Shown: in pieces, positions 5,620 through 44,889 of the stretch
How positions within the stretch are numbered: the first letter of the stretch is position 1
How the letters are laid out: the number at the start of each line of letters is the position of its first letter
Origin: Girardia tigrina
Lineage: Eukaryota
Direction of reading: 5' to 3'
NCBI GenBank assembly: GCA_001938485.1
Contig: MQRK01181236.1
Coordinates: forward strand, 16,478 to 80,477
DNA length: 64,000 bases
Notes under the pieces: generated by a model
The model's database searches: none
What the model was told of the DNA's origin: nothing
What the model saw: the letters and a program-made list of their open reading frames with translations, nothing else
Made by a program: the position numbers and the translations under genes

Positions 5620-6117
5620 TCAGAACCTCCTAAAAAGCCTCAGGCTTAATATCTTTACAGGATGAGAGGATCACATCGGAGAGACAAATCGTCGTCTCAA
5701 AACCCTGATTAGTGAGCATTCGCAAATGAGTCGATCGAGTAAGGTTTTTGATCATTGGTTGTGTTGTAAGGATAAAACCTTATCCATTTCAAAAGATGAA
5801 TTTTCTGTTCTACAAAAGGGATTCTATTCACATTACGAACTACGGTTTTTGAATCTCTACTAATAAGACACTACAACCCATCAATTAAAATTCAGAATGG
5901 GCAAAGTAAGGTTATTTCAATACTTAAAACTTTTAATTAAGATATTTCTACCATTATTACCCAATAATACTTTAATAAATTATAATATTTATTTAAAATT
6001 TTTCTATTTAAGGTAATACACCTTTTAAAACTGTACTATTAAAACAATTTAATATTCATATACTAAATTTCCCAATATTGCTGAAGATGATGTATGTAAA
6101 CATCGACACATGTCCAA
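5620..6117 (+). mobile_element. Penelope-like element 3' fragment: degenerate GIY-YIG endonuclease plus tail
   Basis: HIGETNRRLKTLISEH...EFSVLQK...ESLLIRHYNPSIKIQ, followed by a hammerhead motif. Confidence 0.75.
6078..6117 (+). ncRNA. Minimal hammerhead ribozyme motif, family 2 (core GAAA mutated to GACA)
   Basis: TTG CTGAAGA T GATG-loop-CATC GACA CATGTC CAA; stem I TTG/CAA; palindromic ACATGT stem III. Confidence 0.6.
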
Positions 6118-7039
6118 AAAATAGATAAANNNNNNNNNNNNNNNNNNNNNNNNNNNNNNNNNNNNNNNNNNNNNNNNNNNNNNNNNNNNNNNNNNNNNNN
6201 NNNNNNNNNNNNNNNNNNNNNNNNNNNNNNNNNNNNNNNNNNNNNNNNNNNNNNNNNNNNNTAGAAAGTAAGCTAATAAAAAGAATGGAAAGAAACATCA
6301 AGGCGTTTTTATGACGGACAAATGGTATGCTGAATGCACAAAAATAATAAAACATAATGGAACGAAAAATTAGATAATTGACCCAACATTTCGGTAATTT
6401 GGGAAAATTACATAAATGAATTAAATAAAATACATACTTTAAAAAAAAATAAATAAAATAAAAAATTAAAAGTAAAATAAAATTAATAACTTTAATAATA
6501 AAATAAAGTAAAGCAAAAATCAAATAATTTCATATAATTAAAACTCTTAAATAAATATATAAATTAATTAAAAAGAACTTTAAAAGAAAATTAAATTAAA
6601 ATTGTTTAAATACATCAAAAAAATTAATAAGTTAGACGTGATTGTTTGGCACCGTTTAAAAGTCGAGTTCAATTGTGTTTAGTTACAGTTTTCTGTAAAA
6701 AATAGGGAAAGAGTTGTGTCATTTTGCGGTGTTTAATAATATTGTTACTGGATAGATTCGTTGGGTTTTGATAATTTGAATAAAACTGCTCTTCAACTTT
6801 TCTATCGATATTTTGAATTTAACTTTTTCAATTCGATTTTGAAAACCAAATCGGACGAGAGTATTACGGAAGCTGGGATAACCAATCGATATTTCGATAG
6901 ATTTTTTGGGGCTACTTATAAAATCGCACGGGTAAACAGAAAGAATCTAAATGAAAAAGACACGGTCTCCGAAACACATAAGACACAAGAGGACAGTCGA
7001 TAAATCTAACACCCCACATGTAACCGATTATTCTGGAAG

Positions 7040-7465
7040 AGAAAATTGATGAGACTAAAGAACTTGTGGGAAAACAATATTATATACAAGTACATTTCTC
7101 CTTGGAATACACCGATGGTATGTGTATGGAAAAATGAAAAAAAATGATGTAAGACTTTGCCTAGATTTTAAGCAGTTGAATCTAATCACAGAGATGCAAG
7201 CGTTCCCAATGCCAAGTCATTAGAACATAATTACAAAATCCTAGACAGAGCACTATATTGAATCGAAAGGCAGGCTTGAGAATCAGGAAATGCCATATTT
7301 TGAAAACAGAGGTCAAATTTTTGGGACATAATTAACGAGAAGGGTATTCAAGCAGACCCATCAAAACAAGAAGCAATAAAGTCATTCAAAAAACCAAAAT
7401 GTGTAATGAATCCAAGAAGCTTCTTAGGTTTTTGTAATTATTACAGAAGATTCATAAACGATTCA
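7040..7465 (+). mobile_element. Degenerate Ty3/gypsy RT fragment with internal deletion
   Basis: SPWNTPMVCVWK, RLCLDFKQLN, AFPMP, KFLGH, RSFLGFCNYYRRFI; the YxDD core is missing. Confidence 0.75.
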
Positions 7466-7695
7466 TAATCATGTGACATAGACGCTACATACACTTATAA
7501 AAGAAAAATGTTTAAGTGTAAACTATAACCCAACAAAATAAATTGAAAATTTTTAAAAGGAATTGTATTGGTAAGTTTATTAAAAACTTCTGATTATTAA
7601 CTACGTGAAAAAAATTCATTGAATAATAAATACATTTTGAACAAGTTTATGCGAAAAAAATTCAATATTAAGTATTTCAATAATAATATTCTCAC

Positions 7696-7796
7696 AATAA
7701 CGACCAAAGGAGTGATAACAGTCCAACATGCAATCCAATATATATTTGGCTTAAATTTCAGCATCATATTTATATCGTTTACAAAATTTTTTATAC
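7696..7796 (-). CDS. SLC6 exon 11 (TM11)
   Basis: ag|[34 protein letters not shown]|gt. Confidence 0.88.
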
Positions 7797-10700
7797 CTAA
7801 GAAATAAGACATTAATATAACACAAAGAAATATAATTAATTTTTTAATTAATTATTTTAAATTAAACTTTTTTCCACAATATTATATTATAGTATGCACA
7901 ATATATAATATAATATTATATTATATTATATTATATATAGTATGCACAAAAACCTTTGATTGTTTTTACAATTCTTAATAAAATATAACATTTTAGCATA
8001 AAAGCTTCGTTTAAAAAAACTTTTTTGAAGAAAATTTTCAAATTTTAAATCATTTTGGTCAGAATTGTGTTTGTTTCAGGCAACCTTTTAGTCGAAGTTT
8101 TTTGTGTATAAAATAAACAACCTTTTAGTCGAAGTTTTTTGTGTATAAAATGAACTTACTCGTTTATTTCTGTATCTTAGATATCAGTATAAAATAATTA
8201 ATTAATAATTGTTAACATCGGTATTAAGAACATTTAAACAAGTCTCGTTTGAATCTTTATTGCAATTACATTAAGAGCCATTACAACTCTCAGAAGGTCT
8301 TTCATCGTTTGTCATCGTTCTAATTGGTTTTATTATTTCTGTTTTTAATCATGATTATTCGAACAATTTTTCTAAAGTATGTTTTAAAATATTTAACCTC
8401 TAAAAAATATTAATTAAAAATAATAATTTTTACCATTTTTCAATAAATCCCAAAATAATAAAAATGACATCAAATTATTAAAAATGCATTTAATTTAAAT
8501 TTTACTAAAAATTATTAAACTTAATTTTAATTCCGAAATTAAAAATATGAACTTATAAAATGATTATTTTAATTATGTTCGAATAGTCAGTCCCTTTAAA
8601 CTTAATTAAAAAATACCAATTTCCATCTGGGTGAGAGAATCACCATTCTAAATTCAACATACTTAAATCAACATACCGCATCAATACATTTACACATTCA
8701 AACAATTGAAAATATTCCTCACATCCTCCTCGGTTTAAATGGCTTTAGCCATTCTACATTTCTGATCAAGATCCTGCCGTCCTCTAGTTGTATCTCATAA
8801 CTTCCTTCGTGTCTTTGCTTTATAATTTTAGCTGGTCCCATATAACGGTCATCATCTTTTGATGGGTTAACTTTCTTTATCAAGACTTTATCTCCGACCT
8901 GAAATATTCGTTTTGTTTCAATTATATTTTTATTTGCTTTTTCTTGATTTTTTCCTTCTGTTGTAGTTTTCCCCAAATGTCTTAGTTTTCTTCCGAAGAT
9001 TATCTCGGCTGAAGATATTCCAGTTGTTGCTTGAATTGTACCCTTTAACATGAATTATATTTCTGCCAACATTTCTACCCAATCTCTGTGCATTTCATTC
9101 TTTAATCGTATATTTATGGCGTCTCTTATTGTTCTGAATTGTCTTTCTATGATCCCGTTAGTGTTATAGTGATAAGGACTTGAATAGACTATCTCCGTCT
9201 TAAATCTTTTCGTCGTTTCTTTAAAGAGTGCTGATTCAAAAGTTTTCTCTCTATCAACGTGTGGTCCGATAGACTTTGGTGGTCCGAATTTCTAAATCCA
9301 TTTATCCAATAGTACCTTCCGTGTAGTCTTCTCGTCTTGGTGTACCACTGCAGTCAAGCTGATGTACCTACTAAATTGATCGATTATTGCTAAAATGTAT
9401 TGGTATCCATTCATAGTCCGTCTGAATGTTCCGCAAAAGTTCATGTAAATTTTCTGAAATGGTTCGTCGGCAGATTGTTTAATGTGTTTCTCTTTCGTTT
9501 TTGCCATCAGTGTCTTCCTTTTCTGGCAGTTTGTGTAACTTTGTACGATGTTCTTTATTTGTTGTCTCATTTCATACATATCGAAGTCATTTTTTATTTA
9601 ATTGTAAACTTTCTTACTTCCTGCGTGGCATAACATTTTATGTACATCTTCTATAAAGTCTGTTCTCTTCTTCAGATGGATCCAATATTTGTTATCTCTT
9701 GTCGTCACGATATTGTTTTTTAGAAGACATTCTTTTGTCTTTCCCATTCTAATATTTTCTTTAATCTGTTCTTTCTTTATCTTTCGTCTGCCAAATGAAC
9801 TCTTCTGAATCTTCAGTTAAGGCAAGGATTCTAGTTTTAACTTTTCCTTTTTTAGCGTCATCGAGCATTGTCTGACATTGCACACATAGTTCACATGTAT
9901 TTCTCGACATTGCGTCTGCATTAGTGTGTTTTTCACCCTTGCGGTATTCCATCCTCATGTCTAGTCCACTAAGGAAGTTTATCCAAGTTTAGAATTGTGG
10001 AGTTATTGGGTTCTTCGTTGTCATCATGAATGTGATGGCCTTATGGTCTGTTCTAAGTAGAAACTTCTTTCCGTATAAGAAATGTTTGAAGTGTTGGGTA
10101 AAGTAATAGATTGCCAATAATTCTGTTCTTGTAATACAGTATCCCAGTTCGTGTTTGTTCATCTTGTGGGATCCATATGCAATTACTCTTTCCCTTCCGT
10201 ATGCATCCTTCTTTGCCAGTACTTCCCCGATTGTATCAAAACTGGCGTATGTATCCAGTATAAACTCCTTTTCGAAATCTGGATATGCTAGGTTCGGTGT
10301 TTTTGTCATTTTATTTTTTAATGTCTGAAATGCTTCGTCACATTCCTTTGTCCATGTCAATTTTTTATCTTTATTTTTTCCACATAGCCCTTCCAGTATT
10401 TTTGAATATTTTGCATAATCCTTGAAAAAATTTCTATAATAGTTCGTTATCTCCAAGAAACTTCTTAATGTTTAATGCATGAATGATTTTATAATTTGTC
10501 GATTGCTTCAATTTTCGTTTTATCCGTCTCTATACCATCTTTGCTCACAACATATCCTAAAAATTTTGTCTTTTCTACCATGAATTGACACTTTTCAGAG
10601 TTTATACGCAGGCACGATTCTTTAATCTTTTGAAATATGTGTTCGACTCGTCTGAAATGTTCTTCTTTGTCTTCGCGAAGATTAGAATATCGTCTAGGTA

Positions 10701-13700
10701 TACAACTGCTTCTTTCCAGTTTAATTCTCCTAACACTTTTATCATTAGTTCTTGAAATGTCGCTGGGGCAGCCGCAATTCCGAATGACATTCTTTTAAAA
10801 CAATATTGGTCGTTCTTTGTCGAAAATGCAGTTTTTAATTTTGAATCGTTCTCCAATTCAACTTGATGATATGCACTCCCTAAGTCGATCGTGCTGACGT
10901 ATTTCGCTCCATTTAATGTATTTAGCATTTCTTCTACATTTGGCATTGGAAATGCTGGTCTGATTGTGACTTTATTTAATTGTCGAAAATCAACACATAC
11001 TCAGATATCCTGTTTGTCTTTTTTCCATAGGCATACTAGCGGAAAATTCCACGGCGAACTGCATTTTTCAATGATATCATTTTCCTCGTAATTCTTGATA
11101 ATATCATCTAGTTTTTCCTCAAAGTGTTTTGGTTGTCGGTATGGTTTTACCAATATTGGTTCTCCTTGCGTTTCAATTTTATGCTTAGTTAGTGTGGTTT
11201 TCCCTATATCCCATTTGCCCGCCATTATTATTATTAATCTATTAGTATTTTCATTAAGGGTTCATCTATCTTATCTGCGTATATTTCCCGTATATTTCTC
11301 CGTATATATATTTTTTTTAAAATTAATTAAATATATTTTTTTAATTATAATTGCTTAAAATACTTTTGATTTTACATATTTCTTTATTTTAGAAATTCTT
11401 TATAAAAATTAATTGTTTCAAAAATTTTAAGAGTGAACCTGTCCTTCACATTTTTATTGACTGAGTTTATCTTTTCATCTTTAACAGTAGTAATAATCTT
11501 TAATATCTGGATTATCTTTAACCAATACTTGCAAATATTATTTATAATTTATTATTTATGATTATGATTACCATATAAGTATGATACAACCGTAACTTCC
11601 ATGAAAGAGACTATAATTAAGGAAAATGTTCCACAATATTGGTCCATTAAATTGAAAAGATATATTCCACCCTTAAAATCAGTAATTTAATATAACAACA
11701 AAACATTTTTACTGTAGTCACACATGGAATGCCCAATAAAAATAATATAATTTGAACTGTCACTTTAAATGATACATCAACAAAATAAGTCTTCTTTAAT
11801 ATTGGAAATTCATCTTGAAGACCAGTAAATACTGCTTCAAGTCCACCAAACTGCGAATCGATTCCTAGAGTGAATAGCATTATAAAAAATAAAATTGACC
11901 ATAACGGTGCCCAATTCATTTTTGATATGCCTTGAGCGTATGCAACAAAGGCTAAACCAGTTCCACTGGTTGTCGTATCTTCGATACTTCTTCCTGTTTG
12001 ATGTGAAATATGACCAACCACAGAAAATATTCCAAAACCAGCAACGAAACTAGTTCCGCAATTAATAATCGACACTAAAACTGCATCTCTATGAATAAAA
12101 TATTTGTTAATATATTCATTATTGAAGAAAATATATATTTTTTAATGAAATCATCTTTTAAATCGTATAGAAGTGGAGAGAACTGCAAATTTTTGTTGTA
12201 AATTTTTAAGAAATACAGTTGAACCTGTCTAATCCGTCCCTCTTTAATCCGGCAGGTTCGAAAATTTCCATTTTTTAATCACGCTATTTGTTCTGACTCT
12301 CTATTCCGGCAAACCGTATATTCCGCAATATTTTGAAATCCCCTGCCATGCCGGAATAGCCAGATTCTACTGCATACATATCAACCAGTGTCGGGTGGTT
12401 GTTTTTGACGTTGGGGTAGCAATAATCCGGCACACAACGTATGATAACACAAAGATATAATAATGTTTTGAATTTTTATTGCACGTATACATAAGTATTT
12501 AATTAAAATTCATTATTACGGCTTAAAATCAGATGTAAGCATATTTTAAATTTCCTCTAGGCTTACTTAAGAACAGGACAGAGATGCAAAACTTTGTACA
12601 ATGTATGTTGAAAGCCAGAATGAACTGAAGAATTGCACAACTCGATGATGTTTTCAGCGCTTCAAAAAGGTAATAATAGTTTTGAATGTAATAACGCTAA
12701 AAGCAGCCATTGGTAATAAATCAGTATGAGCTGCATTCTTGAAGCGTCAGTTTAAGCACCCGCAGAATGTCAAATGTACTTTTGCTCGTTGTCTGCATAA
12801 ACTTAGTTTTGTGTCCAGAAACACTTTTTAAGTTCCCACAATTGATCTAAAAATAAAGTTCAGTTTCGAATAAACATTTGACAAAAACTCCTCCTAAACT
12901 ATCAAGAGCAAATTAAAGTAGTTAATCAAAAGTAGGTCTTATTTCACATTTTATGAGGTGGGACGCAGTGGTTACAACCTTGTCAGTAAACTCAACATGT
13001 AATCTCATATGTTGTACAAGTGGTGAAATTTCAATAGCTTTGTACCTTTAGAGCATTTTTGGATGGTCATTTTAAAAGCCTTAACCTCTACACCAAAAAG
13101 CTGAAGAGCATATTTGGTGTTTTGAGAATTATGTATCCCGCCTTATAGAATCGCTCAATAGAACTTCTTCAACATAACAACACTCTAACTCATATATAAT
13201 GAAAGGTAGAGCAAAATACACAGGAGTTGTCAAGCCTGTCACATCCTTGCTCCTTCTGATTTATACATGTCCCGCTAGTGGTCCCTTTTCCATGTTGGTA
13301 CAACTTTACATATTAGGAAGATTTGTTGCCTGTCATCGCTGATTTCGTTATCTCAACGTTGCCTGTATTACCTTCAAGAATTGAATAAATGGCTCGAAGG
13401 AGGTTTCAACTGATAACGAATGATAAATGACCACTTTTGTTTAAAAGTTATTAGCAATTGAAATTATTGACTAAAAAAATGCTCTTTCCTTCTGGAAAAA
13501 CTTAATATATAAAGAGAAATTAGAAGTGTTTTTAATCATTTTATGCTATGTATATGTAAACCGCGCATCCTCACAAGAAGTTGTTCAATAAATATTTCTT
13601 CATTACGTTTTTTCAAGCTTTTTAAACAATTCTTTTAAAGTTAAAAGACTTTTCTATAATCATCATTTAAAATGACTACAGATTATGAGGAATAAATATT

Positions 13701-16700
13701 TTCAAGAAAAATTCATAAGAATAAAAATTTTTTTGATAACCTCAAACCCACCGGTAACAATTGTTATTGAACTTGTTATAGCTTGCCATTGTCATCAGTC
13801 CGCCAAAACCTACCCCCAGAGAGTAAAATATTTGTGTCGCGGCGTCTCCCCATACCTAAAAATATATTTTTCTAAATATTTCTATTTATTTCTATTTTTT
13901 ATACAAATTGTATATAATTATTTATAATTTGACCTTTTATAATTAAACCAGCAAAAAACCTCTCATATATGACGGGGGAGCTAAATTCCATGTATGTATC
14001 ATCAAAATCGATGTTAATTTAACAATTTAACGACTTGCACGGTTTTCCGTCGATTTCATCGGCTTTTCGGCGTCTTTCGGCAAAGGCACTGCATCGACAG
14101 AACCATCTCGATTCTGGCTATTAAGATTGAACACTTCATTAAGTTGATTTTCTCCGGTTACTCCACAATTTCACATTTTGATCATAGCGTGACCGACAGA
14201 CCAACAAACAAACAAACGAACACTTTAGATAAATATTTTAAATATTCTTTGCTTTCTCTTTATTTTCTTGTTTTAAGTACCTAATTTGTTTAGTCGCCAA
14301 TATAAAAAGGATAAATAGCTTACCTTACCGAAGACGGATTGGAACAAACAATAAATTTTCTTTTGACTCCTGTTATTCTAATCTAATGGATTAAAGCATT
14401 TGTTGTAGATCAAATGTGAAAGTTTTCAAAAATATTTTGTATTAGAAACATGTCAAATAAAATCAACAATGACGAGGGCCAGAAATAAATTGTTAAAAAG
14501 AATAAAGGATTTTCAACGAAAGATATTACAGAAAATTAATAAATATTGAATAAATGATAAATTTAATTTTTTTTTGATATCATTAAATTATAAATCTAGT
14601 AAACCAAAAAATTTAATTTTATATCCACCCATGCAGACAGAACTCTACTTTACCAACAAAGTTATAATTAAAAAAATAATTTCAAAAAAACACAATAAAA
14701 AATTAAAAAAATTAATATAAGCTACTTATAATTTATGAGTAGATCTTTTTCAATTAACCCGTTTACTACCATAGACCTATATATATATGGGTTTACGGTT
14801 TATAACTTTTGAACGAAGAGGAATTTTTAATGCGGTTTTTTTCTAAATATTACTATTAACTTTTCTAGTCCATCTCTCTCGCTCTCTAGTCCAACTCTAT
14901 TCAATTTATTGCATCAGAACAAAACTGGAGGATGTAGAACAGTGAGAAAAAATAATAAAGGATTGCCAAAATTCTCTGGAAAATCACGAAAAGGAGATGT
15001 TCAATGGTTTTCGTCTTCAGCTCTTCTAGCAATGAAATGGAAAGACAAACGAGATGTCTACATGTTATCGATTATAAATAGTACAAATTTCTTGAACACT
15101 GGAAAAATTGATAGAATAAACGGAACAGAAATTATGAAGCCCGCTCTAGTCATGGAATATTCGCAAAAAATGGGAGCTGTTGATGAAACTGACATGTAGA
15201 TATCATTCGTGAGACTGTAGATAAAATAATCGAAATAGAAAAAATCAAAAATGAACAAATTAATAGTTTAAACATTGAAAACTGCTTTACACCTGGGTAT
15301 ACTCTAAGCTTACCTTACTCCGAAGGTTTTAAACACCTCAAGAATTCGATCTTGAAATCAACAAATAANNNNNNNNNNNNNNNNNNNNNNNNNNNNNNNN
15401 NNNNNNNNNNNNNNNNNNTTTAAAGTTGAGAATATGTTTTGCAATAAATCACATACTCCTTTAGGATTGTGTTCGGACATTGTTTATCAATACACATGTA
15501 ATGGGTGCAATGCCACATACATTGGAGAGACTGCCCGCAATCTCTGCAAACGAATCCAAGAACACAGTCAAAAAGGGGGAAAGAGTTATATTGCTGAGCA
15601 TAAAAAAACGTGTAAATGCAATATGAGCATAAATGATTTTAAGATTTTGTGCAAGAATTTTAAAAATTATTGGGAGAGAGTGTCATGTGAAGCATGACAC
15701 TCTCTCCCAATAAGATAAGATCATGTTGGTGCATGATCTTACTTACTTACCTATCGGGGGGCAGCTAGCACTCTTTAGTTTGGGTGGACCCTCTAAAGAG
15801 CCTAGTGGCTCAATACCATTCGAAAGAGATGGGAGGCTCACGTTCGAGACACACCGCCATCACAAAACATGGATTAGTGAACATTCCCGATTCTCGAGAG
15901 ATGAGTTCTCCATTTTACAAAAAAATGTTGATTTACGCTACGAACAGTAAATTTGTGAATCATTGTTTATCAGGCATTATATCTATTGTTATATTAACAA
16001 CATTATTGTTAATGTTATCTATTGATTAACATTCAAAATGAACAAAGTAAAGCTTCAATTTTAAATATTTTTAATAAATTTAAAATTTAAAAATTTTGAC
16101 CAATAATATCTCTGTTAAATGTAATTAATTTGTATTATGTTACCAATTACAGACAATTTTAGAGAACATTTAAAATTCACTGAAGATTATCTGAAAATAC
16201 ATCGAAACATGTCAGGAAAAATAAAAAAAAATAAAAATAATTATTTGTAAACAAAATCAAACTAGCAATCACGAGATTAAATTTATATTTTTTATGAAAA
16301 TTCTAAACAGCTTTGAAAAAATTACTCGATCGAATAATTCATTAAATATTCTCAAGATCGTTTAATTATATAAAAAGAATAAATATGTTTTGTTACAAAG
16401 AATCGTAGAAATATTAAGACAATTATTATTATTATTATTTAAAATTATTTGTAATCCATACTTGTGGCTCTAGTAACTTTCTCCATTTTGGAATTAAATA
16501 ATATTTAATTCCTTTACGAGATCCTTCTAGTAGACTTCCATTAACAATCATTATGACAATTACAAAGTATGGAAAAAGTGCCGTGAAATAAACAACCTAT
16601 AAAAAGCAATTTAACAATTATATTTCCAAAAGATTTATAACTTTTCCTGAAGATTTAACACCTTTTATTAAACAAGCTGCACATATGATCCATGCGAGTA

Positions 16701-19700
16701 GTAAACATAAGCATAAATGCCATTGAACTTTATAAAGTTGAAACTGCATAGGTAGCAAACGTCCAGAATAATCAACAACGCCTAAAACGACTCTTCTGAA
16801 AAATTAAATTACGTTATTGATATTTAATTAAAACAAAATTTTAATATTCTTGTAAATTTGGTTTAGACAAATTTTAATATTTATTTAGATCAGAAAAGCC
16901 TAAATATCCTAAATTGTCTTGGATATGAACAATAGAATACACTTTGAAGGAAAAACCTATTGTAAAAACCTATTGTAAACTTATTGTAAAACATATTGTA
17001 AATTTGGTTAAGACAAATTTTAATATTTATTTAGATCAGAAAAGCCTAAATATCCCAAATTGTCTTGGATATGAACAATAGAATACACTTTGAAGGAAAA
17101 ACCATAAATACAGAAAACAATAAGAAGTTCATATCCTGTCATCCACAGGCATTCGTAACAGGAGAGCCACTTAGTTCCAATAACCAACCAATTACCACAT
17201 TCCGCTGCACAAACCCGGCAGTTTCTCCAAGGAGCAGGAATCAATACGTTGCTATGGCCTGCTTTAAACCATAATTTGAATCCCATTGAAAATAAATGGG
17301 GTTTGATAAAGGTTTTTTTCGTAAGCATGGCAATGTGACTAACTTACACACTCTCCGTCAATCCATCACAAAAACTTAAGACTTGAAATTTTCGCCCCAT
17401 CTATTCATCTATAAAATGGTGTTCGTTAAATTTCTTTAATAAAATTATTTTTTGGATTATTGTGTAATATTGTCGTTATTACTAGATGTTCCTTCTTTAT
17501 GCACTATACTATAGTTGCAAATTACTCTCAATCAAAAGTTGTTTCTAAAAAGTAATGGACGTATCGGAAAATGATCAAAAATGATCATTTCAAAATATCT
17601 TTTTAGAGACAATATATTTTGAAAGATCAACAGTCATCTTCAGGTCACTGGCTAATTATTTGATCTAACTGTATAAAGATACAAAAGTTTATTGAGTTAT
17701 AGATTACATGAAACCATGCTAATCAGAATTTTTAATAAGATCGTTGAGACTGTAATCTGAACAATAACTTTAGATGAGGCAATCTACTTAACAATGCTTC
17801 ACACTACAGTTTCTATCAATAACTATCAAAATACTCAAAGAGAATCTTGAAATTATAAAATTTAATATCATATTTACATTGGTTCTCATATATACCAAAC
17901 GTATTCTTACTCTTTTTTCAAAGATATTCTTGAATTCGTTTACAAAGATAACTGGTAGTGGCTCATAAAAATTTTCCAATGAAGTCTATAAACTGGTATC
18001 AATTTGCATTTACTCTAGTCTCATCATGTAATTAAGAAGGTTTCTTTCAACAAAAAGGTCTAAGAAAAGTAAGATACCATTTGTTTTGTTTTTAACTGTA
18101 AAAACTACATTTGGATGTAACGAATTCTTAAACATTTAAAATAGAAATACATCAGTAAGAACTGTTAAAACTAAAAATATATCATCAACATATCTTTTAG
18201 ATATACTTATACTAAAGTTTAATTACCATCAAATAAATTTATTTTATTTTCAATCTTTGAAAGAACAAATATAAATTAACTGAAGTGCTAACACTGGACC
18301 CATGGCAACCCCAAAAGTTTACTTAAACCACTCAATATTGAAAAGAACATGAACATTTAACGTAATAAAATTTATTAGTTCACGAAACCAAACCTTGTAA
18401 ATTATATCATATTGTGGTTGGTTCATTATCTTTCACCAGATCACAGCAAAATTCAAAATTTTCACTTAAGGAACATTTGTAAAAAAATAGAGATATCATA
18501 AGAAACCGTAAATTCAACTTCACACTGCGTTTTTTAAGTAAAAATGAAGCCAGAAAATTCATAGCTATCATGAACTGTTCCATCCGATCTCCTGGTTGTC
18601 CCGAAGATCAGACGATGGTTACAGAGATATATAGCTCTAGAATTTCTCGCTGGACCAATTTTATATTATTTAGACTGATTACCATGATATTTACTTTATT
18701 TCGTTGTATTTTGATCAAAATCAAATTCAAATTTCAGTTAAAACCAACTCAATTCAAAAAAAGTAAATCACATTTTAAATTTTCAATAACAGCAATTTCG
18801 CTCAGTAAATTTAAGTTGTAAAATGTTCACAAATCTCAAATCCTATAAGTATTCAGCAAATTCATAAGTCGAGAATAAATTTCCATTCAAAATGACTCAA
18901 TATAATTGACAAAATAATTTCGCTCACAAATAGAAATTATCGAAAATCATAATTTGATTCAAAAATAATTCGTTCAGAAACATTCGATTCAAATATTCAT
19001 CGCTCAAAAAAAATTAATAAAAAAGCTCTCGATTAGATCTTTCAAAAATATTATTTTGTTACTAAATGTAAACTGAAAAAAATTAATATATAAAAAACAA
19101 ATTAAAATACTTATTTTATTAAACAAAAAATTGCAATCACAATCAAATTGAAATCAAATTTTCTGACTACTCGCTCTGATTTTTCAGCTAATTAGATCGA
19201 GCTACTTGACTTTTTAACAAATTCGGTCATTTTATCAACAATCGGCACATTCTCGGCAATCGACTAATCGAAACGATAATAATATTGAGTCATTGAAAAA
19301 AAATTTAAATAATCGTTTGATAATAATTATAAATGTTAAGAGAACTCACACATTTGACAGAACATTTATTACATTCACAATTTTGATTATCTCTATGATA
19401 ATCAATAGTATTGCTCTAACTTAAATTCATCACTCAATGTTTAATACATTTATTTAAAATATTTACTTTAAATTTTATTGGTTAAAATAAAATTACTTTT
19501 TTATAATTGTTATCTTCTTTCGGAACGGCCAAATAATCCATAATAAAAAGTCAGAAATAAGTTTTTAGTAAAAATTTATTTTAATACATAATTTTCCACT
19601 TTTTTGAATATTTTTTCCCAAACTCCGAATATTAAAACAATTTTTTTATTTTAATATGATTTAGTTATTTTTTGGAGGAACCAATTTATTTAAATTACCA

Positions 19701-22700
19701 ACCATATATAGTACAAATATTTATATACATAAAAACAGTTTAATTATTTAATTATTTAACTTAATTATTATGATAAAATTTTCTTAAAGAATTTTACATT
19801 ATTATTATTCATTTAAATTAATTTACTATTAGTTCATACCAGAAAGAATGAGACTTTTGAAATGTCAATATCATTTTTAACGAGCAATGTAAAAACACAA
19901 CCCTGTGTAATACATTCATTCATAATCACCATTCTTCTTTATAACATTAGAGAGGCATTGTATCAGTTTTCCCATCTCAGATGACCATCGATCAGCAGAA
20001 ATATTTTTTAGTTGTGATTTAATGAATTGATGTAACTCATCTGCAGATTGAAAATTGGTTTTGTGTCACTGATCTTCCAAGTAAGGGTGAATAAAGCGAT
20101 CTAAGATGTTATAATCAGGGGAATATGATGATTGACGGAGCAAGGTAGCATTCTTGTTTGCGAGAAACATGGACGTCACTTTAGAAACATGAGGCCTCAC
20201 GTTGTCTTGCACGAAAATCATGTTTCTCCAGTTGAGTGGAAACACATGTCGACTAAACTTCTTCTCTATATTAACAAGAAAAGTGACATAACGCTCGCTA
20301 TTCATGCTTTCTCTCTCCTGCAGCAGTTCGCAATGATATTTTCCAGTGAAGGACACTGCGATGACAGACATGATTTTTCTGTCAAACTGGCTACGCTTCA
20401 TGACATGAATGGGTTCACTGTGATCATCATCAGGGGAGACAGTTCTCATGTAAAACCACTTCTCATTCACCATCACAATATGTTCATGTTGGTGTTTGCT
20501 TTTCAAAATTTTCAACCATTCCTTTGCAGCAGTGACATGATTAACCTTTTGATCATTTGACAATGCATGAGGAACTCACTTACAGCCAACAGATCGAAAG
20601 CCCAAATGGTCACTCACAATACGCTGAATGGTTCCATGGCTGAGGGATGTCTCATCTTCAATTTCATCAATGGTCACTGCACCATTGGCGTTAAGAATTC
20701 CAGAGACCAACAGAATGTTTTAAGGGGTTGTTTTTGTTGATTTTCTCCCGCAGTTTTCCCAAGCAAAAGAAGTCTTGCCATTGTCAAATTCAGTTATCCA
20801 CCGATACACTGTAGATTCTCCAACACTGTCATAACCATGAACAGAGATAATTTCCTGATAAATTTCACTTACCGTTATGCCGAGTGAATAACGGGAGAAG
20901 CTATAGAAACGAAGATTTTTTCGATTTTCCACCATCATACAGACAAATAAATCAACCAATATTCAAACAAGTATTCAATAAATATTTTCAGTCAATATTT
21001 TTTTAACTATTACATATTTTTACTCTTTATATGTTACCATATACTGCGCAAGTAATTTCCGCCTTTACAGATCACAAACATGGAAATATAACATTATTCT
21101 CACTCTTTCTGGTACGAACCAATACATCAAAAATTTTAGCTTCAAATTTAAACCCTAACAATAACTATTTAAAAACAATAATTTAATTAAGAACACCGAC
21201 ATGGGTTTCCGAACTTTTATTTTCAATACAATTAGAATTGTCTTTTGGACAACTCTCAGTAAAACTTTCGTAATTCGACATCGTTCTAAATTGATAACTT
21301 TTAGTTAATGTTTGTTAATAAACAATTATTCGTACAAATTTTTCATTATTTTTAGATTTTATTGTTAAAGTTCAAATTTTGTAATTTTAGTAATAATTCT
21401 ATCTACATATTAATTTTATTTAAAAAATGATTTTATGTAAAGAAAGAACATTTATTTAATTTAAAACTTAGTTAAAGCTATTTACTTTATTTAAATTTTT
21501 AATATGAAAATTTGAAACGATTTAATATTTTGAAAGTTTTTTTGAAAGTTCGGCCTGCCACTGGAGACGTTTGCGATGTTTATCGCTAGTGTTGGATTTG
21601 GGTACGTTGCACATGGTTTCATCTGTAAATTTTTATGATTGTTTCTTTTTCAAGGAATATCGCTGCACTACCGTTCTATCGTTATCAACAGGTGATTGTC
21701 GGACAAGGTCAATCGTTTTTCCGAACAATTTTGACAATTGTTTATACAGGATGTCTGCTTCGTTCGCTGGGGACCTACTGCAGAGCTTAGCAGACGGCGG
21801 ATTTCCATGATTCATTCTGAATCATTTTGGTGAGTTAATTATCTTAATTAATTAAGAGTTTTTTAACCAAGTTTTCTTTAAGGGTTCGTTGCTTCCTAAG
21901 TTGTTTGGCTAAAGAAATAAGCTCGGGCTCCGTTCGACTTAAGACCTCTGAGTCTCTGTGGTTCACGGGATTTATTGTTGGACGGAGCCTATTTAAACGT
22001 ACTGGGGAATAGTCAAGTTAGACATTCCCCTATTCTTTGAAGATTGTGCTACACTTTGAAGATCGTGTCGTAACAATTAGTTTCAGATGATAAGAATTAA
22101 AATATTAATCATCCAACTGATTAGGCGAGACACAATCCCAAATCAACACACAACATTGAAATATGCAAACACTACACAAAAACATCCACACACCAAATAT
22201 TCCTCACAATAATAACCGAACAAACACTTTTGTTTGGATTAAAAAATACCGTCCAATTTCAAACTACCTCAATTCAATTATTATTATTTTTGTCATTATT
22301 TAATTTTCTTTAAAAATACGTTTCTATATAACATCAGATTATAAACATAGCAAGCAAAGATGAATCATCATTGAAATAGAAATATGATTCACAGTTTTTC
22401 TAAAAAAAGATAAATTCTAACTACCAGATTGTTTTTTAGCGAAGTTGAGAGGGGTTTTTGGAAGTATAAATTAAAATAATGAATATAGTAGTGATTCAAT
22501 TTAAAAATTTCGAAACATGAACCAAAATACAAACGATAACAGTGGCTTAAATTTTAAATTTAGATATTTTACTTCAATAAATTGAGACGTTCTAATCATC
22601 AAAAAACGGGTCTTTACAGTCAAAATTGGTTTCTTTTTACTCTCATACATTTTTTCGTTCTCTCATAATAGTTAAATATCATAAAATATTATTTTCCAAA

Positions 22701-25700: not shown

Positions 25701-28700
25701 AAAATGTTTATTAAAAAGTTTATGACTTCATATTAAGACAAAATACTAACCTTGTCAAGGTGTTGGAAGCATGTTGTATAACAGAAAATAACTTTTTTTA
25801 TTAAATGCATAAATTAACAAACTTTCCAAGTGATAATTATCATTATTTATTCGGACAACATGAAAAAACAAATGAGTATAAATTTTAAAAATTATATATA
25901 ATTTTCTGGTTTGTCAAAAACATTAATTACATGTTTTTAACAAAAAAAATCATGTCATACAAATGAATATTTTTGTTATTTTTATTACAAAGATATTTTT
26001 ATATTTGTATTTTTTATTATTTATTTTTTATATTTTATAGTGATAGGTTGAGCGCGGCATCCAGACCTAGAGTTCTTCAACTCGTGTCTTGTTTTTGATT
26101 TCTGTTGATCGAAATTTTTATAACCTGCATTTATTGTCCAATCACCAATTTTGGCCCTAAAGAGAGCCGTATTTCTTTCGTAACTTGCGGCGTTCTTAGC
26201 CAATTCTCCCGGCAGCAGCAGTATCACTCCCGTCTGGATCTCTCTGCTCGTGATCGTCGACTTCTCGTTGTAATGCGCCAATCATCTAGCCTCACTTGCA
26301 ATCTGTTCAGAAACATCGTACACGAAATTTTTCATGTTTGACATGGCTTCGCCGGAGATGCCAGTGTCTGGGTGCATCTTCCGCAGCAAGAATTCGATCA
26401 TTTGTCTTTCATCTTTGGTTATTGATTCGGGAATTGATGGAGGTACTAGAGATTCTCGGATTTTCTTCATTAATTTTGATTTTAATGTCGTTCGAGTCGA
26501 CTTTGCCCACATCAAAGAAGAAGCAGTGCTTCGCGTACTCTGATAATTGACTAATCTCTTGTCGAATATCATTGCAATATTCGTCGGTTTTATTTTTGTG
26601 TTTTTGACGTTAAATTTCTCTAAAATTCTCGGATTACATTTCGGTGGATGACATTCAGTTCTCATTTATTTTATTTTCAATTGCAATAAAAATTCGATAT
26701 TGCTTAGTAATTTTTATTAGCTATAAAACTCTATATTAAATTATGCATTAAAACAATGCCAATAATAATTAAATTTTTTTAATGTAAATTTTTCCAATTA
26801 CAAAAATCCAAATTAACCAATACACAAAATTTCCAAACTCAAAATTTTCTAATTTAATTTTTTTAATAGTCTCAAACAAATATTTTTGATATTTTTATTA
26901 TAAAGATATTTTTCATATTTGTATTTTATTAAATAATTATGTTTTTAGTTATAATGTACATTTGTTATAGCTGAATCGAATGTCCTCGGTAAAAAAAGCA
27001 ATTTAAGATCAACGAAATCTTAATATTATCTTCATACACTTTAACGGACAAACCCTTTGAATCTATTTGGTCAGTAAGAAGGGTATTATCAAAAAGACAA
27101 AAATTATTATAAGTGTAGCGGCAGCAGCGCAGTGGAAGCTTATATCATATCTTGACCTCCTGCGGGTCACCAAGGGGAGAGAAAAGTGTTCGGTCACGTC
27201 ATTGTCATTTTTATTATCATTTATGTTTTGACTAAATTTCCTATTTTTATTATTTTTATTATTTTTATTAATATTTTGATTCTTATTTTTGCTATTATTG
27301 TTATTATTATTTTCAATTTTATCTTTATTATCTTTATTTTTGATAATATTTTTAATTTTATTATTTTTATTATTATTTTTATTATTATTATCATTTATAT
27401 TTGCATAAATAAACACAATAATTATACAAGGACATACATTTATTAATCGTCCGAACGTACCGACCGATTTGGGAATATCTGAACACTTGATCTTTCTTTC
27501 GCAATCATTAGAACCACTTGAGGAGCCACCGATGAAATAATCTGGTTGAAATAATTTCCCAAGAATCGAATTCAGATCGTAATCGAGAGTGATACAATTC
27601 AACTCAACCATGACGCTGATCGGCGCACACTCTCCATGAACTCCCGAAGTAACGTAAACGTCGTATCTCTGCAATCACGAATCACTGTCACTTTTGTGAA
27701 CACCAGTGGTCGGTTTGACACCGTGTTTGTTAGTGATTATTTCCCAAGACTTCGTTCCCATACTGTTTCTACAACTTTGAATTATTCTCATAAATTTATA
27801 CCATTTATCATGAATGTCTTCACAAATTTTGATATACAATCCCCGATCGATAATTTTTACACGATTATTTTCAAACGTCTTTACAAAATAATCAACATTA
27901 AAAATATAGTCGAATGGCATGAATAATTTTCTTAGATAATAATTGAAATCAATCTCTCGTATAAAACTCTTTTATTATTATAACATTCACAAATTAGCGG
28001 AGTTACCGCGAATATTTTCAAAATAAACCAACTAACAACCAAACTAAGCCTTTTAAACAAATTGTTTTTTATATATATCTATATCATACAATATATATAT
28101 ATACAATATATGTATATAATTTTTATCATTAAACAAAATAAAAGTCTTTTTGGCTTTATAAAAATATTTAAGAGATTATTTTTTTCTTTTTAACTTAATT
28201 TACTTTAATTTACGAAAACATAAAAATTTACTTATTTTTAGAATTCCAAATTTTACGAAATTCTAAATTTAACGAAACCGAACAATAAGTAATTATTAAG
28301 TTATATTATTTATCAGCCTTAGACTAATTATTTATGATTAATAATTATTTATTTTAATTTTAAATATTTAAATTATAAAAATCAGAGTAAACCATTTCTC
28401 AAATCCACTAAGCATAATTCATCGTTCCATGGATTGTTGCATTCGGCCCAAGGCAACTTATTTGTAATGGATGCAAATAAATAGTATAAAGCCCATGCAA
28501 TTATCACATTGTAATATATTGATCCAAGTAAAGCCATAATCAACATTGCATATCCGATTCCTGAAATGAAATATTCAAAAAGTAAATTAAAAGCCTTTTA
28601 GAAAACCTTTAAACATAGGTTGTATCTTCCAAACTGATATTGGTCCACAACTGGAAAATTGTCCTAGAGCTAACTCAAAGTAAAACAGTGGAATTCCGGC

Positions 28701-31020: not shown

Positions 31021-32348
31021 CTGATAATAATAATCATAATTAAAAAACTAAATTAAGATCAAAATTTTCTTTAAATATAAAATTAATTTACATGTTGAAA
31101 TATGGATTAAAATTAAGATTAAAATATTTTGTTTTATTAAAAGGAAATCCTCGGTAAAAAATGGCATTAAACACTAATTATTTATTTATAACAATATTTT
31201 TTGTAAAAGTAAAATAAAAATCACAAAAACAGATCAAATATTTTTCGTATTTTTAAGTTTTATTCTATTAATAAAATATTTATTTAGTTGAAAATTCACT
31301 GAAATATAGGAATAATGTTTATTTATTTAACTGAAATATATTTTTTCTTTCTCTTGGAAAATATATTTTAGAGATTTAATTTTTAAAACTAAAAATTTAT
31401 TTTAGAGTAAATTTTCAAAACATTTTAAAATTCATATTTTAAAATAAATTGTTATATGAAATATATAAATATATATGCCTCTACTCTTAATTACAATTTT
31501 AAAAAAATATCTGATAATTTATAATTATACATCAATAATTTCAGTAAATGCATCATATGGTTTTTTATGTACAGTATACCCTTCAATAAATTAATTTTAT
31601 GGCATTTACATTTGAAAAAAGCAGTGCGTGAAGGAAAGCTATACAAATGTTTTCAAGTGGAAGAGATCACATGTTAGGATCACATGAATATCGAGAGTGA
31701 TATATTATATTATTAATTATATCTAAATAAAAGAATGAACTAATTACAGGAAAACATTATTTAATTTATTAATACGTATTTATTTGATAAATTACACTTC
31801 TAGTTTTCTTTTGACCTCCAAAGTCTAGAATTATTGTTTTGGAATTTTAAATTGAAGTGTTATTATATTCATAATTTCTATCTATATCTCAAAGTATTTA
31901 CTCTCTGTACTTGCCCAAAAGACAAATATTGTTCAAATTTATCACTGAGAAACTTGCTCTCCTTTATATATATAGTTGTATTTAATTAGAAAGTTATTGT
32001 TTATATAGAAAGATGACCATTACGTCACAGTGTGTTACGTCAAAATACTCTAATATGATTGGACGAATCACTTTGCACATTTAGACTAGGTTTANNNNNN
32101 NNNNNNNNNNNNNNNNNNNNNNNNNNNNNNNNNNNNNNNNNNNNNNNNNNNNNNNNNNNNNNNNNNNNNNNNNNNNNNNNNNNNNNNNNNNNNNNNNNNN
32201 NNNNNNNNNNNNNNNNNNNNNNNNNNNNNNNNNNNNNNNNNNNNNNNNNNNNNNNNNNNNNNNNNNNNNNNNNNNNNNNNNNNNNNNNNNNNNNNNNNNN
32301 NNNNNNNNNNNNNNNNNNNNNNNNNNNNNNNNNNNNNNNNNNNNNNNN

Positions 32349-32620
32349 CCCAATTGTGTTTTAGATTTATTTGAGAAGTAATTAGAAATTTTATTAGTTA
32401 GGAACAATACTTTAATTGTAACACCTACTGGGGCTTGTTTTTCTAAAATTCGTTTAAAATCCCTAGCCCCTTCGGAATATGGAATTTTTAAATAAAATTT
32501 TTTAGAATTAATCACTTCCTCAGTTGTATTCAAATTTTTATTAATTTTGTCTTTTGATTTTAAATAAATTGACTCCATGGTATTTTTAATGATGTTATTT
32601 AAATATTTCTATATTATTTA
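32349..32620 (-). mobile_element. Penelope-like fragment (RT-endonuclease linker) running into a gap
   Basis: FYLKIPYSEG...NKISNYFSNKSKTQL, homologous to the 15300-15460 region. Confidence 0.7.
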
Positions 32621-34544: not shown

Positions 34545-34770
34545 TAAATAGAATTTCAAGTGGACAAAATCGAGCATTTTCGACACCATCTGCCTTTTGC
34601 ATTTAATAGAGGTGTTAACGCCGCCGAAGCTGCTCGTGAGATCTGTTCTGTGTATGGCAATGGAGCAATACCTGAAAGTACCGCCCGCCGTTGGTTTTCG
34701 CGCTTTAAAAATTGAAATTTTGATCTGAAAGACAGGCCACACACTGGTCGACCAACTGTGTTTGATGAAT
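34545..34770 (+). mobile_element. mariner transposase N-terminal HTH fragment
   Basis: NAAEAAREICSVYGNGAIPESTARRWFSRFK...DRPHTGRP. Confidence 0.85.
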
Positions 34771-34784
34771 ATGTTTGATAATTA

Positions 34785-34825
34785 GTGACCTGAAGATGAC
34801 GGTAGATCCGTCGAAATATATTGTC
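34785..34825 (+). ncRNA. Minimal hammerhead ribozyme, family 1, intact core
   Basis: GAC CTGAAGA T GACGG-TAGAT-CCGTC GAAA TATATT GTC: stem I GAC/GTC, 5-bp stem II, palindromic ATATAT stem III. Confidence 0.8.
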
Positions 34826-35449
34826 TTAAAATATATTTCCAAATTGATTGCATGTATTGCCAATTTGATTGCAATAATTTCTATCTTGATCGAGAAATTC
34901 TCAATTTGATTGAAAAACTTTCCACGTTGGTTCCCAGAATTTCCATATTGATTGAAAAATTTTCAAAAAAAGATTTTGATTGGAAAGATTCCTTATATTA
35001 TAAATAATTATATAAATGTCCAGTGTGGAATCTGCAAGTATCATCATAACCACTATTCAATTCATATGTGACGGCAGGTACTAAAAATAAAGTCCAACGG
35101 TTCTCAGTCGATCATTAGAGAATTTATAACTGATAATTATCTGGGGTCAAACCATCACAAACTTTGATAAAAAATTGAAACTTGAAATTAAAGATGAACA
35201 GTATTACTAACAAAAATTAAAAAATTGATATTTTGATGTAGGTAAATAGACATCTGCTACAACTGATATGTCACAGCCCGATAGAGACATCAAATACTTT
35301 CAATGTACATTATGCAAGTAGTAGCATAAGACGAAATGGTGGCTCTTCATATTCAGTAGAAAAAGTCGGAGAATTAATGGTATCATCAATAAAATCCAAT
35401 GAATATACCAACATTACTGTAGGTGTCACATCCAATCCGAACTTTATTA

Positions 35450-35720: not shown

Positions 35721-35787
35721 ATAGAAAAATGGAATAATGATTTAAGAAATACACTAAATATGACCTTTTTGAAAATACAAAATATAT

Positions 35788-42083: not shown

Positions 42084-42125
42084 TAACCCTAACCCTAACC
42101 CTAACCCCTAACCCTAACCCTAACC
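42084..42125. repeat. Interstitial telomere-type repeat, about 7 x TAACCC
   Basis: TAACCC units with one TAACCCC variant. Confidence 0.9.
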
Positions 42126-42129
42126 TCTG

Positions 42130-42430: not shown

Positions 42431-42919
42431 GTAAATCACAGGTAATGGAATAAATATCAATATTATATTATAGATTCTAAATATTACTCACATCAGATGT
42501 TACTCACTGGTCGAGAAAGATACAGATGTTCCTTTTCTATGGAACTATTGACCTGTTGTAATCAGCAACAGACATTCGTTTGATTGTCTCGTACTCCTCT
42601 GATGTTTCCGTCTTACTGTGGAAAGTAAGCCGTTTACTCGCGATAATATCCATGGGATGTGGGAGTCCAATGTCCAGGATGTCCATACGGATCTTTTCGA
42701 TTTTGTGTTTCTTCCTAACTATGCGCGTGCATATGTTATGAAGAGCATGCAATTTCAAAGGTAGATGTGCTATCACGAAATACAAAAATAAAAATTAATA
42801 AATTGTGCTCTTCACGACTGATATTATAGTATTGTGTCAAATCAGTTCTGCGACAATTCAAAATATTTTAATTAACAGTGAATTCTTTCTAGATCATAAA
42901 CATTTATTAAAAATGTTTT

Positions 42920-43210
42920 AAATTATTTTAAAGATACCTGGATTGTTCGGCCTGATAAAAGAGGAATTAAACAGCCCAAAGTTTGCAATTCATTTGTTGA
43001 ATGTATTTCAATACTACAATGAATAAACCTTGGCGGAGTATATACGCCAAGTTTCACATAATAGGTTTTCTAGTATGATTAATTCAACCCATCCAAATAT
43101 TTCGAAATTTATTAAAGCTTGAAAAAAAGAACAAAGTTTATATCGATTAAAAATTAAAGATATTCTAACGGGACACGAAAAGAAGACTACAAAAAAAGAA
43201 TTCAAAAAGT
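42920..43210 (+). mobile_element. MULE/MuDR transposase C-terminal relic
   Basis: YFKDTWI...PKFAI...HNRFSSMINSTHPNISKFIKA*KKEQ. Confidence 0.6.
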
Positions 43211-43918
43211 TTTTCGAGAATTTAGAAATCGAAAAATGCTGGAATATTTATGAGGTATATCACACAATTTTCAATTGCAAATCTAATTGAAATATTCAGC
43301 ATTTCATATCTTCATACTAATATTGTTGTATTTTTTGTTTGTCTCATTTTTAATATTGATAAATGCTTAAATCGTTTGTTTTTATATTCTATTAGTGATT
43401 GCTTTTTATAATATTTTTTAATTAAGCATTGCATATTATTTGATTAATATTGTCATGATTTTGATTTAAAGTCTTAAAACAAATTGATTAAGTTTATTAT
43501 TTTCATGCATTGAATTATCGTAATACTGAATAGTCTCTGCGTTTTTTTATTTAAAAGGCTTAATATTTGTTGGCCATCTTTTTTTAAGTTTTCGGTTTTT
43601 GTACTAGTAAATTTTGTGTGTGCTCAATTTTAAATATATGGTATTAAATATGTTATTCCAAATTAATTTTAAATTATTTGCAGTATTTTTTCAAAAAAAA
43701 GATTAAATAATATTGTAATATATTAAAATTAAAATATTACACAAATAAAAAATCAATTTTTAAATTAATAATTAATTAATCTATTTATGATAATTTTTTC
43801 TTGATTAAAGAATTTTTTTTGAAGGAAAAAATAATTCGATTTATCTAGGGATTTTTCAAAAATAATTTCCAATTTTTAAATTCATAAAAGCCAATTATTT
43901 ATTTTTCAAAAAAACAGA

Positions 43919-44311
43919 TTACAAAATATTACACATGTTACATTTCCACGAACACATATAAATATTATTATAATTTTTCGTGAGAATTATCGGTAAATCT
44001 GAACCAGGACTTGGAAATTCAATGGAATGAGATAACTTATAAAACTCTTGTAGACTATTATAATAAAACTGATACATTTCACAGTTGACCGGTTGAATAT
44101 ATTTTGGAAATGTTAAAGGATGATTTAATTTTGTAGCTTCAGTACTACAGTTGTCGAACTTTGTTTTTGAATCTAAAAAATCATCTTTTTGAACCTCTTC
44201 AACATTGTCGACGAACTCGGCTTCAAATAAATAGATTTTATTTTGAGTTAAATCAAAATGAATTTGTTTTTTGTTTTCTTCTTTTTCACAATTTTTTTGG
44301 AATTTTGTCAT
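43919..44311 (-). CDS. Orphan 130-aa protein or terminal exon with RVxF-like motif KQIHF
   Basis: Uninterrupted 130-codon ORF in very AT-rich DNA; ATG directly preceded by TTTTATTCAG (possible acceptor). Confidence 0.45.
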   Translation of the reverse strand: MTKFQKNCEKEENKKQIHFDLTQNKIYLFEAEFVDNVEEVQKDDFLDSKTKFDNCSTEATKLNHPLTFPKYIQPVNCEMYQFYYNSLQEFYKLSHSIEFPSPGSDLPIILTKNYNNIYMCSWKCNMCNIL

Positions 44312-44524
44312 CTGAATAAAATCAAATTATTATCAATACGATTTTTACTATAATTATGGACGATAATATAATATATATTAATAATATAATAATAATAATA
44401 ATAAAACAAATTAAATCATATAAATAAATGATAAATAATGTTTTATATTATTTGTGAATAAATTTAAAAAATAATGGCATTTTTTTCAAAAACCCAAAGA
44501 CATGCCATTTCGAAATATATTTTT

Positions 44525-44567
44525 GTAATAATATATTTCGACACTTTTACCGTCATCTTCAGGTCAC
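44525..44567 (-). ncRNA. Minimal hammerhead ribozyme, family 1
   Basis: GTGAC CTGAAGA T GAC-loop-GTC GAAA TATATT ATTAC. Confidence 0.7.
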
Positions 44568-44846
44568 TGTTTTTTAGTTTTTTTACTGTTTATATGTGTG
44601 AAATGGGTGATTATGTACTCTATTAAGTAAAATTAATCGAAAGCTTTTAAGAAATTGGTGAGTGCCGTTTGAAGATTAATTTTAAGATCACAAGTCCTTA
44701 TTAACAATAACTTTTAAAATGCTCGCACAGAATTTGAAATCCGTTATACTCAAATCACATTTACAAGTTTTTTTGTTAGAAATATTTCTCTTAGATTACA
44801 TACTCATCCATTCCACATATATAAACAGTAAAAAAGCTAAAAATCA

Positions 44847-44889
44847 GTGATCTGAAGATGACGGTAAACCCGTCGAAATATATTATGAC
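44847..44889 (+). ncRNA. Minimal hammerhead ribozyme, family 1
   Basis: GTGAT CTGAAGA T GACGG-TAAAC-CCGTC GAAA TATATT ATGAC. Confidence 0.75.

Follow-up and report, generated by a model that had tools for sequence, protein, structure and literature searches.

Minimal hammerhead ribozymes have been described in the terminal repeats (pLTRs) of metazoan Penelope-like elements (PLEs), those of the planarian Schmidtea mediterranea included (Cervera and De la Pena 2014, PMC4209133); the Schmidtea entry in that work has CUGAAGA followed by an extra U, a 5-bp stem II, and a UAUA loop. In the Poseidon element PAc of the lizard Anolis carolinensis, the open reading frame (ORF) starts at stem II of the hammerhead, 26 to 27 nt before the cut, and the two-site tail of the element was traced to two start sites of reverse transcription (Frangieh et al. 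2024, PMC11167929). The role of PLE hammerheads is an open question in PMC11167929 as well as in PMC8557442 (Craig et al. 2021). Here, we analyze 64,000 nt of the planarian Girardia tigrina genome (assembly GCA_001938485.1, contig MQRK01181236.1, positions 16,478 to 80,477; hereafter the window), in which a preliminary description made from the letters alone had reported six minimal hammerheads of two families, mostly at the 3′ ends of PLEs. We find that in three subfamilies of these elements, termed 1a, 1b, and 2a, the start codon of the element's own ORF lies within the ribozyme motif, an overlap that the preliminary description had overlooked, as it had a PLE relic of a third family.

In family 1, A9 of the hammerhead core, the extra U that follows it, and G10.1 together spell ATG. 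At one locus (L216), the frame stays open for 190 codons from this ATG to an assembly gap, beyond which an in-frame DKG motif, also seen at locus L387, appears. A Met lies exactly 34 codons before the ORF anchor in at least 19 of the 90 loci examined, which come from both 1a and 1b; the other loci start further down or bear small indels. The ORF of family 2a begins at a different ATG, the one within the ACATGT loop palindrome, and remains open from there for 261 (locus L390), 146, and 104 codons in three of eight continuing loci. The family 2a N terminus is 37% identical to that of 1a (E = 6e-27), and no homolog of the N-terminal 190 residues of 1a turned up among longer proteins. The motif is partly coding; its core 5′ of the AUG does not code for protein and is conserved all the same. 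From the A of the AUG to the predicted cut there are 27 nt in family 1 and 5 nt in family 2a, and no further Met follows the cut in the 1b peptides (to codon 34) or in 2a (over 261 codons). A general rule that places the AUG in the ribozyme was not found beyond PMC11167929 in the literature searched, with supplement file 1 of PMC4209133, Repbase notes, and papers behind subscription outside that search.

Patterns for these motifs were counted over the whole G. tigrina assembly, each against a reversed control. The generic hammerhead pattern has 22,294 matches, the exact family 1 pattern 2,882, and the CTGAAGA form of family 2 44, versus 0 in every control. The extra base is U in those 22,294 matches and another base in 474, and among the matches listed the non-U variants are mostly single changes of the U families. 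The G10.1-C11.1 pair was built into the generic pattern and is hence present by construction; stem I was absent from it. Across 19 distinct motifs among the matches listed, stem I pairs 1 to 3 are Watson-Crick in 18, 19, and 16 cases (shuffled means, 0.28–0.38; 0 of 5000 shuffles reach the observed values) and stem II pairs 2, 3, and 5 in 17, 18, and 17 cases (at most 1 of 5000 shuffles does as well); pairs 4 and 5 of stem I and pair 4 of stem II do not exceed shuffles in this set. Stem I varies on both strands between families (GAC/GTC, GAT/ATC, TTG/CAA, GAA/TTC, and CAA/TTG), as does stem II (GACGG/CCGTC, GATGT/ACATC, GCCAC/GTGGC, and GGTGG/CCACC), and the outer bases of the palindromic loop 3 are complementary in 18 of the 19 motifs under a pattern that allowed mixed forms. 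At the sequence level, then, the stems and the palindrome covary between families, and the covariation on which the preliminary description had let its reading depend is present in these 19 motifs. Could the motifs be chance matches in AT-rich DNA, or coding sequence that merely resembles a ribozyme? An Rfam scan of the window gives no hammerhead match at E ≤ 10, lone motifs fold no better than shuffles (z, −1.65 to +1.08), and the motif is partly coding. The second of these is, however, expected of 40-nt motifs without stem III, and 22,294 matches against none in the control, compensatory changes in stems I and II and in the palindrome across families, a non-coding core that is nonetheless kept, and a like architecture published for Schmidtea make this origin extremely improbable. 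It was rejected on the covariation between families.

The explanation that very probably covers the data best is that these are PLE terminal-repeat hammerheads, lying in truncated copies in the window and overlapping the ORF start in the active element. In such an element, a single stretch serves as the 3′ terminus of a unit and also as the beginning of the ORF that follows, an arrangement that is directly observed, with the AUG placed at A9-U-G10.1 (1a and 1b) or inside the ACAUGU palindrome (2a). Two motifs would pair through the palindrome and so form stem III, probably with help from the PLE protein, as the literature suggests. Our folding estimates put the active monomer at −1.2 kcal/mol and the best fold at −7.7 kcal/mol, and a swapped dimer at −15.2 versus −15.4 kcal/mol for two monomers; a lone monomer is thus predicted to be unable to hold stem III, which fits the dimer model of the literature. 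Of 30 family 1a copies, 14 end between +37 and +52 of the cut and 12 between +71 and +84, and these two groups of ends suggest that reverse transcription begins some 41 or 76 nt beyond the cut site, which corresponds to inferred starts some 68 and 103 nt downstream of the AUG. From there it would mostly pass through the ribozyme, as the DNA copies indicate, whereas a cut would separate the start codon from the rest of the ORF.

Whether cut RNAs serve as templates can be read from the 5′ ends of the copies. Our survey drew on two sets, in which 79 of 90 loci (11 dropped as duplicates, contig ends, or lacking an anchor) and 29 of 34 loci (5 dropped) were kept; three loci that belong to another subfamily were left out, and two of these have their starts 4 and 8 nt ahead of the cut. 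The two sets together give 108 independent copies with an ORF; 47 of them are long enough to reach the cut site, and 42 of the 47 extend past it. The remaining five start within 2 nt of the cut, one of them being probably an allele of another. Truncation rates on either side of the cut are alike (0.0090 versus 0.0074 per nt, P = 0.51), a preset window of 3 nt on either side gives P = 0.16, and there is no clear pile of copy starts at the cut in either set. Contigs often begin near the motif; we attribute this to assembly and drew nothing from it. Linear cut RNA is at most a minor template.

The model of Cervera and De la Pena assigns the motifs a different part, in which they cut tandem transcripts to unit RNAs, which are circularized by ligation and then copied around the circle; the AUG overlap would then be a by-product of a compact element. 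We regard this as a possible account, though one held with reserve. Circles would yield the partial tandems that we observe and the read-through of an intact ribozyme (42 of 47), four to five copies do begin at the cut, and palindromes and stems covary. A search for one 1a variant with a non-U base at position 17 gave five matches (four point variants and one true junction), and its control gave two (one point variant and one junction); one of the five and one of the two start at or 2 nt before the cut, in numbers that are small. Against the model stand the equal truncation rates on both sides of the cut and the Anolis Poseidon element, in which mutating the ribozyme core leaves insertion in vitro normal and the cut coincides with neither the beginning nor the end of any RNA read (PMC11167929). 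The 3′ ends 41 and 76 nt past the cut demand internal priming under either model.

Several points weigh against our explanation. Beyond the cut, family 1a offers another in-frame Met, at codon 18, and family 2 retains the extra U though its ORF starts elsewhere. The link between hammerhead and ORF is seen in 1a, 1b, and 2a; among 20 long family 3 copies, none has a same-strand hammerhead joined to the ORF start. The shuffle test takes the 19 motifs as unrelated, their kinship not being counted. In the window from −2 to 0 of the cut, four starts are seen versus 0.9 expected (P = 0.013), a window that was picked post hoc; the excess was not replicated, the single match in the second set resembling an allele of an earlier copy. 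Finally, cut-and-religated circles would likewise read through the ribozyme, such that uncut RNA and circles both fit the 5′ ends. Since family 2 has the U and starts its ORF elsewhere, the start codon alone fails to explain the extra base.

In family 2 (for instance, at loci L034 and L033), the extra-U ATG opens a short upstream frame ahead of or over the true start, 13 codons long in 2a and 2 codons long, as Met-Met-stop, in most 2b copies. This frame could damp translation.

Returning to the overlap of the start codon with the ribozyme, we tentatively favor the damping of the element's own translation as the most likely use of the cut; a third option, beside this and circles, is that the cut has no needed role. 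A broader proposal, which we advance as speculation and think rather unlikely to hold as a whole, is that across Penelope and Poseidon elements the hammerhead acts as an off-switch for translation and not as a replication tool, a protein-assisted cut stripping the cap and the AUG from the message. Cleavage would then occur once enough PLE protein is bound, and the planarian families would have shifted the AUG between two sites in the ribozyme, always upstream of the cut.

Within the window, a fuzzy scan of both strands that required both motif halves found the six motifs where the preliminary description had placed them, four of family 1 and two of family 2, and no seventh. Their core C3 positions are 6081(+), 16180(+), 17643(−), 34790(+), 44562(−), and 44852(+). 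CTGAAGA followed by an extra T and a loop palindrome, either ATATAT or ACATGT, are present in all six, in agreement with the earlier reading, and the family forms have the CUGANGA and GAAA core, the type I order, and an AUH cleavage triplet. The core is unaltered in four of the six copies, the exceptions being those at 6078 and 17608. The only undamaged copy, as judged from its letters, is the family 1a hammerhead at 34787–34825(+). It reads, in order, GAC, CTGAAGA, T, GACGG-TAGAT-CCGTC, GAAA, TATA, TT, and GTC, with its ATG at 34796–34798 and a predicted cut after 34822. Stems I and II are both present in its predicted fold, and an identical form occurs among the exact family 1 matches of the genome.

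The other five copies are damaged to differing degrees. In the family 2a hammerhead at 6077–6118(+), with its core at 6081–6087 and extra U at 6088, A14 is changed to C at 6107, and the motif reads GACA in place of the GAAA first attributed to it; its ACATGT palindrome holds an ATG at 6110–6112, and the predicted cut lies after 6114. The family 2b hammerhead at 16176–16217(+) carries a G10.1-to-T change, with stems I and II broken and no stem II in the predicted fold. The family 1a copy at 17608–17648(−) carries an A in place of G12, so that GAAA reads AAAA, and its stem II is broken. Of the two family 1b copies, the one at 44567–44527(−) is damaged in stems I and II, and the one at 44847–44887(+) keeps its core and stem II and has a stem I weakened by a mismatch at the third pair. 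Both belong to a subfamily with a GAT/ATC stem I, which corrects the GTC end originally given for them.

The association of these motifs with PLEs rests on protein-level matches. Two proteins with reverse transcriptase (RT; RVT_1) and GIY-YIG (PF26215) domains, P0123 and P0126, were used as tblastn queries; by eye, neither has a cysteine linker. They match window relics at 5672–5934(+), 15202–15694(+), 18608–17780(−), 44754–44663(−), 32599–32348(−), and 2912–2579(−), in RT-then-GIY-YIG order, as in the one-ORF architecture of endonuclease-bearing (EN+) PLEs. PLE ORF relics lie in or beside five of the six motifs, as had been claimed, with 34785 the exception: an endonuclease relic lies 5′ of those at 6078, 16178, 17608, and 44525, and 44847 forms an inverted pair with 44525. 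On their letters and their surroundings, we take the motifs to be minimal type I hammerheads of Penelope/Poseidon-type pLTRs, which upholds the preliminary assignment.

A 5′-truncated family 2a relic at 5672–6129(+) consists of a GIY-YIG end (5672–5934), a 3′ untranslated region (UTR), and the hammerhead, followed by a stretch of N, and is 88% identical to locus L053 over 459 nt. Further along, a linker and GIY-YIG relic at 15202–15694(+) (Pfam GIY-YIG E = 3.9e-5; 70% to P0123) precedes a family 2b 3′ end at 15887–16288(+), which holds the 16178 hammerhead and matches loci L036, L043, L047, and L052 at 70 to 83% in blastn; the relic and this copy represent either one insertion or two. An old family 1a relic at 17586–18608(−) retains RT (18608–17962), endonuclease (17959–17780), 3′ UTR, and hammerhead with many stops (tblastn E = 6.7e-19), and its closest fetched copies are 75% identical. 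The intact hammerhead lies in a lone 83-nt family 1a stub, 34766–34848(+), that spans −56 to +26 from the cut site, has no PLE ORF relic attached to it, and is directly 3′ of a mariner helix-turn-helix relic (34548–34712). At 44457–44754(−), a family 1b stub comprises the endonuclease end (44754–44663), the 3′ UTR, the damaged hammerhead, and a tail to +72, and it faces an inverted shorter copy at 44794–44929(+) that lacks the tail and ends at +43. The arms of this pair are 135 nt long and 81% complementary, and a transcript of 44457–44929 would carry the motif once in sense and once in antisense and, by prediction, collapse into a single long hairpin, which would keep the pair from working as a ribozyme dimer. 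A young family 3 relic at 31990–32608(−), 98 to 100% identical to its siblings, ends just short of the hammerhead that they carry (GAA/TTC, GCCAC/GTGGC, and ACATGT), in which both ATGs share one frame; family 3 has 15,477 first-look candidates in the genome.

Genome wide, a same-strand PLE protein match is found upstream of 42 of 91 motifs that have 200 nt or more of DNA there, and an opposite-strand match upstream of 12 more, in a sample from which 38 of 129 motifs were left out as having too little upstream DNA and which is partly biased, some loci having been fetched with a PLE query. The copies show the traits of EN+ PLEs, namely pLTRs from partial tandems, an inverted 5′ copy, and a tail of 30 to 40 nt. 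No tandem motif pair occurs in the window, and the non-coding tandem units of non-LTR (long terminal repeat) retrozymes are not seen there. Family 2a copies L325–L374 very often end in (TA)n microsatellites, in a sample biased by a query that carried such a flank.

Three of the motifs lie within the span of an SLC6 transporter gene on the minus strand, 1–28927, that runs past the left edge of the window, with a further exon there. By tblastn, its exons are at 28927–28394, 22864–22802, 16803–16456, 13855–13752, 12088–11712, 11670–11569, and 7793–7669, and an exon is 75% identical to Schmidtea mediterranea Slc6a-5. Three of its GT-AG joints are present in contigs from all four sequencing runs compared, runs presumed to be of RNA. 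The motifs at 6078, 16178, and 17608 are placed in introns by exon order, and the introns that hold them are not bridged by run contigs within the stretch compared; 6078 and 16178 are antisense to the gene, and the 17608 copy, with the PLE relic that carries it, is sense. All three are mutated and only 17608 is sense, exactly as the preliminary description had it. Its further hint, that the host had selected against intact ribozymes in these introns, above all in the sense orientation, because they would cut the pre-mRNA, fares less well, and we consider such selection improbable. The only intact copy does lie outside the coding span, and tandem retrozymes are depleted in Xenopus introns in a study where orientation was not analyzed (bioRxiv 10.64898/2026.07.22.740005). 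The damage nonetheless matches age: the three copies are 88% (6078), 77 to 83% (16178), and 75% (17608) identical to their closest fetched relatives, and at the corresponding 12 to 25% divergence a 13-nt core would escape decay untouched with a probability of only about 0.22, 0.08, and 0.02, respectively. Only one of the three lies in sense orientation, and a single copy is no sample; outside the gene, two of three copies have likewise been damaged. A lone copy is, moreover, predicted to lack stem III, its active monomer lying 6.5 kcal/mol above the best fold. Because of the divergence, the antisense copies, and the damage outside the gene, the hint of selective disabling is unsupported. We see no sign of selection on the SLC6-intron copies; the window copies are likely decaying neutrally and are not expected to cut in place.

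SLC6 introns also hold, in sense orientation, a weak PLE RT-thumb relic at 2579–2912(−), with no hammerhead found downstream, and a broken LTR-retrotransposon relic (RT, RNase H, and integrase) at 8722–11261(−). DNA transposon relics with matches to DDE_Tnp_1_7, DDE_3, and mariner HTH_48 are at 14831–15196(+), 17159–17335(+), 20069–20962(−), and 34548–34712(+). An uninterrupted 543-codon frame at 53819–55450(−), present in 13 of the sequencing runs listed, is presumably a RIO1-like kinase, and the frames at 48632–49450(−) and 61466–62500(−), the second open for 344 codons, are putative Tc1/mariner-like transposases. A 127-codon frame at 26282–26665(−) has no Pfam match, and its end seems to resemble histone H2B.

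Elsewhere in the genome, an RT-less PLE ORF, in which the N-terminal domain is joined straight to GIY-YIG, is fused in frame to ribosomal protein L9/uL6 sequence at L404:1395–1925(+) onward (contig C45977) and at L403 (C27166) and L405 (C169216). The fusion is found in three of six contigs fetched, with two different left flanks. The uL6 part spans 177 codons, has PDB matches at E = 2.5e-59, and is 62% GC with 92% GC at third codon positions, versus 29% GC in the window. It may derive from a foreign mRNA that template switching brought in; contamination and misassembly are possible sources as well.

Our results add planarian families to a described class of hammerhead. The extra U, the palindrome, and the opposite-strand pairs are already published in PMC4209133, Schmidtea included. 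Like the motifs in that work, those of G. tigrina are type I, with an extra base between positions 9 and 10.1, a G10.1-C11.1 pair, and a palindromic loop 3, and they form many families per genome, mostly as single dispersed copies, with opposite-strand pairs 100 to 700 bp apart. They differ in their stem sequences, with a stem I of 3 to 4 bp and a stem II of 5 bp versus 7 to 8 bp in Schistosoma, and in copy number, 22,294 versus approximately 2,000 to 9,000, counted with other descriptors. The portions of the PMC4209133 main text covered make no mention of a start codon in the hammerhead. Animal non-LTR retrozymes likewise carry PLE-derived type I hammerheads, but these are non-coding tandem repeats, whereas the window copies are dispersed ends of coding elements, none of them tandem (bioRxiv 10.64898/2026.07.22.740005). 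The unit at 44457–44929, with its tailed copy (+72) and inverted untailed copy (+43), matches the canonical EN+ PLE layout in PMC8557442 and differs only in being a stub. High copy number makes these families well suited to a genome-wide comparison of orientation in introns.

The closest parallel is PAc (PMC11167929), with which the G. tigrina elements share RT followed by GIY-YIG, an ORF start at stem II and a cut 26 to 27 nt downstream of the start codon, a pair of 3′ ends separated by about 35 nt, AT-rich targets, and, probably, uncut RNA as the main template. Reverse transcription starts 111 to 118 nt into the ORF in PAc versus about 68 or 103 nt after the AUG in family 1a, and the family 2a AUG lies in the loop 3 palindrome, unlike that of PAc. 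An AUG overlapping the ribozyme in one lizard element and three planarian subfamilies, at two different positions, suggests that the ribozyme may control protein output.

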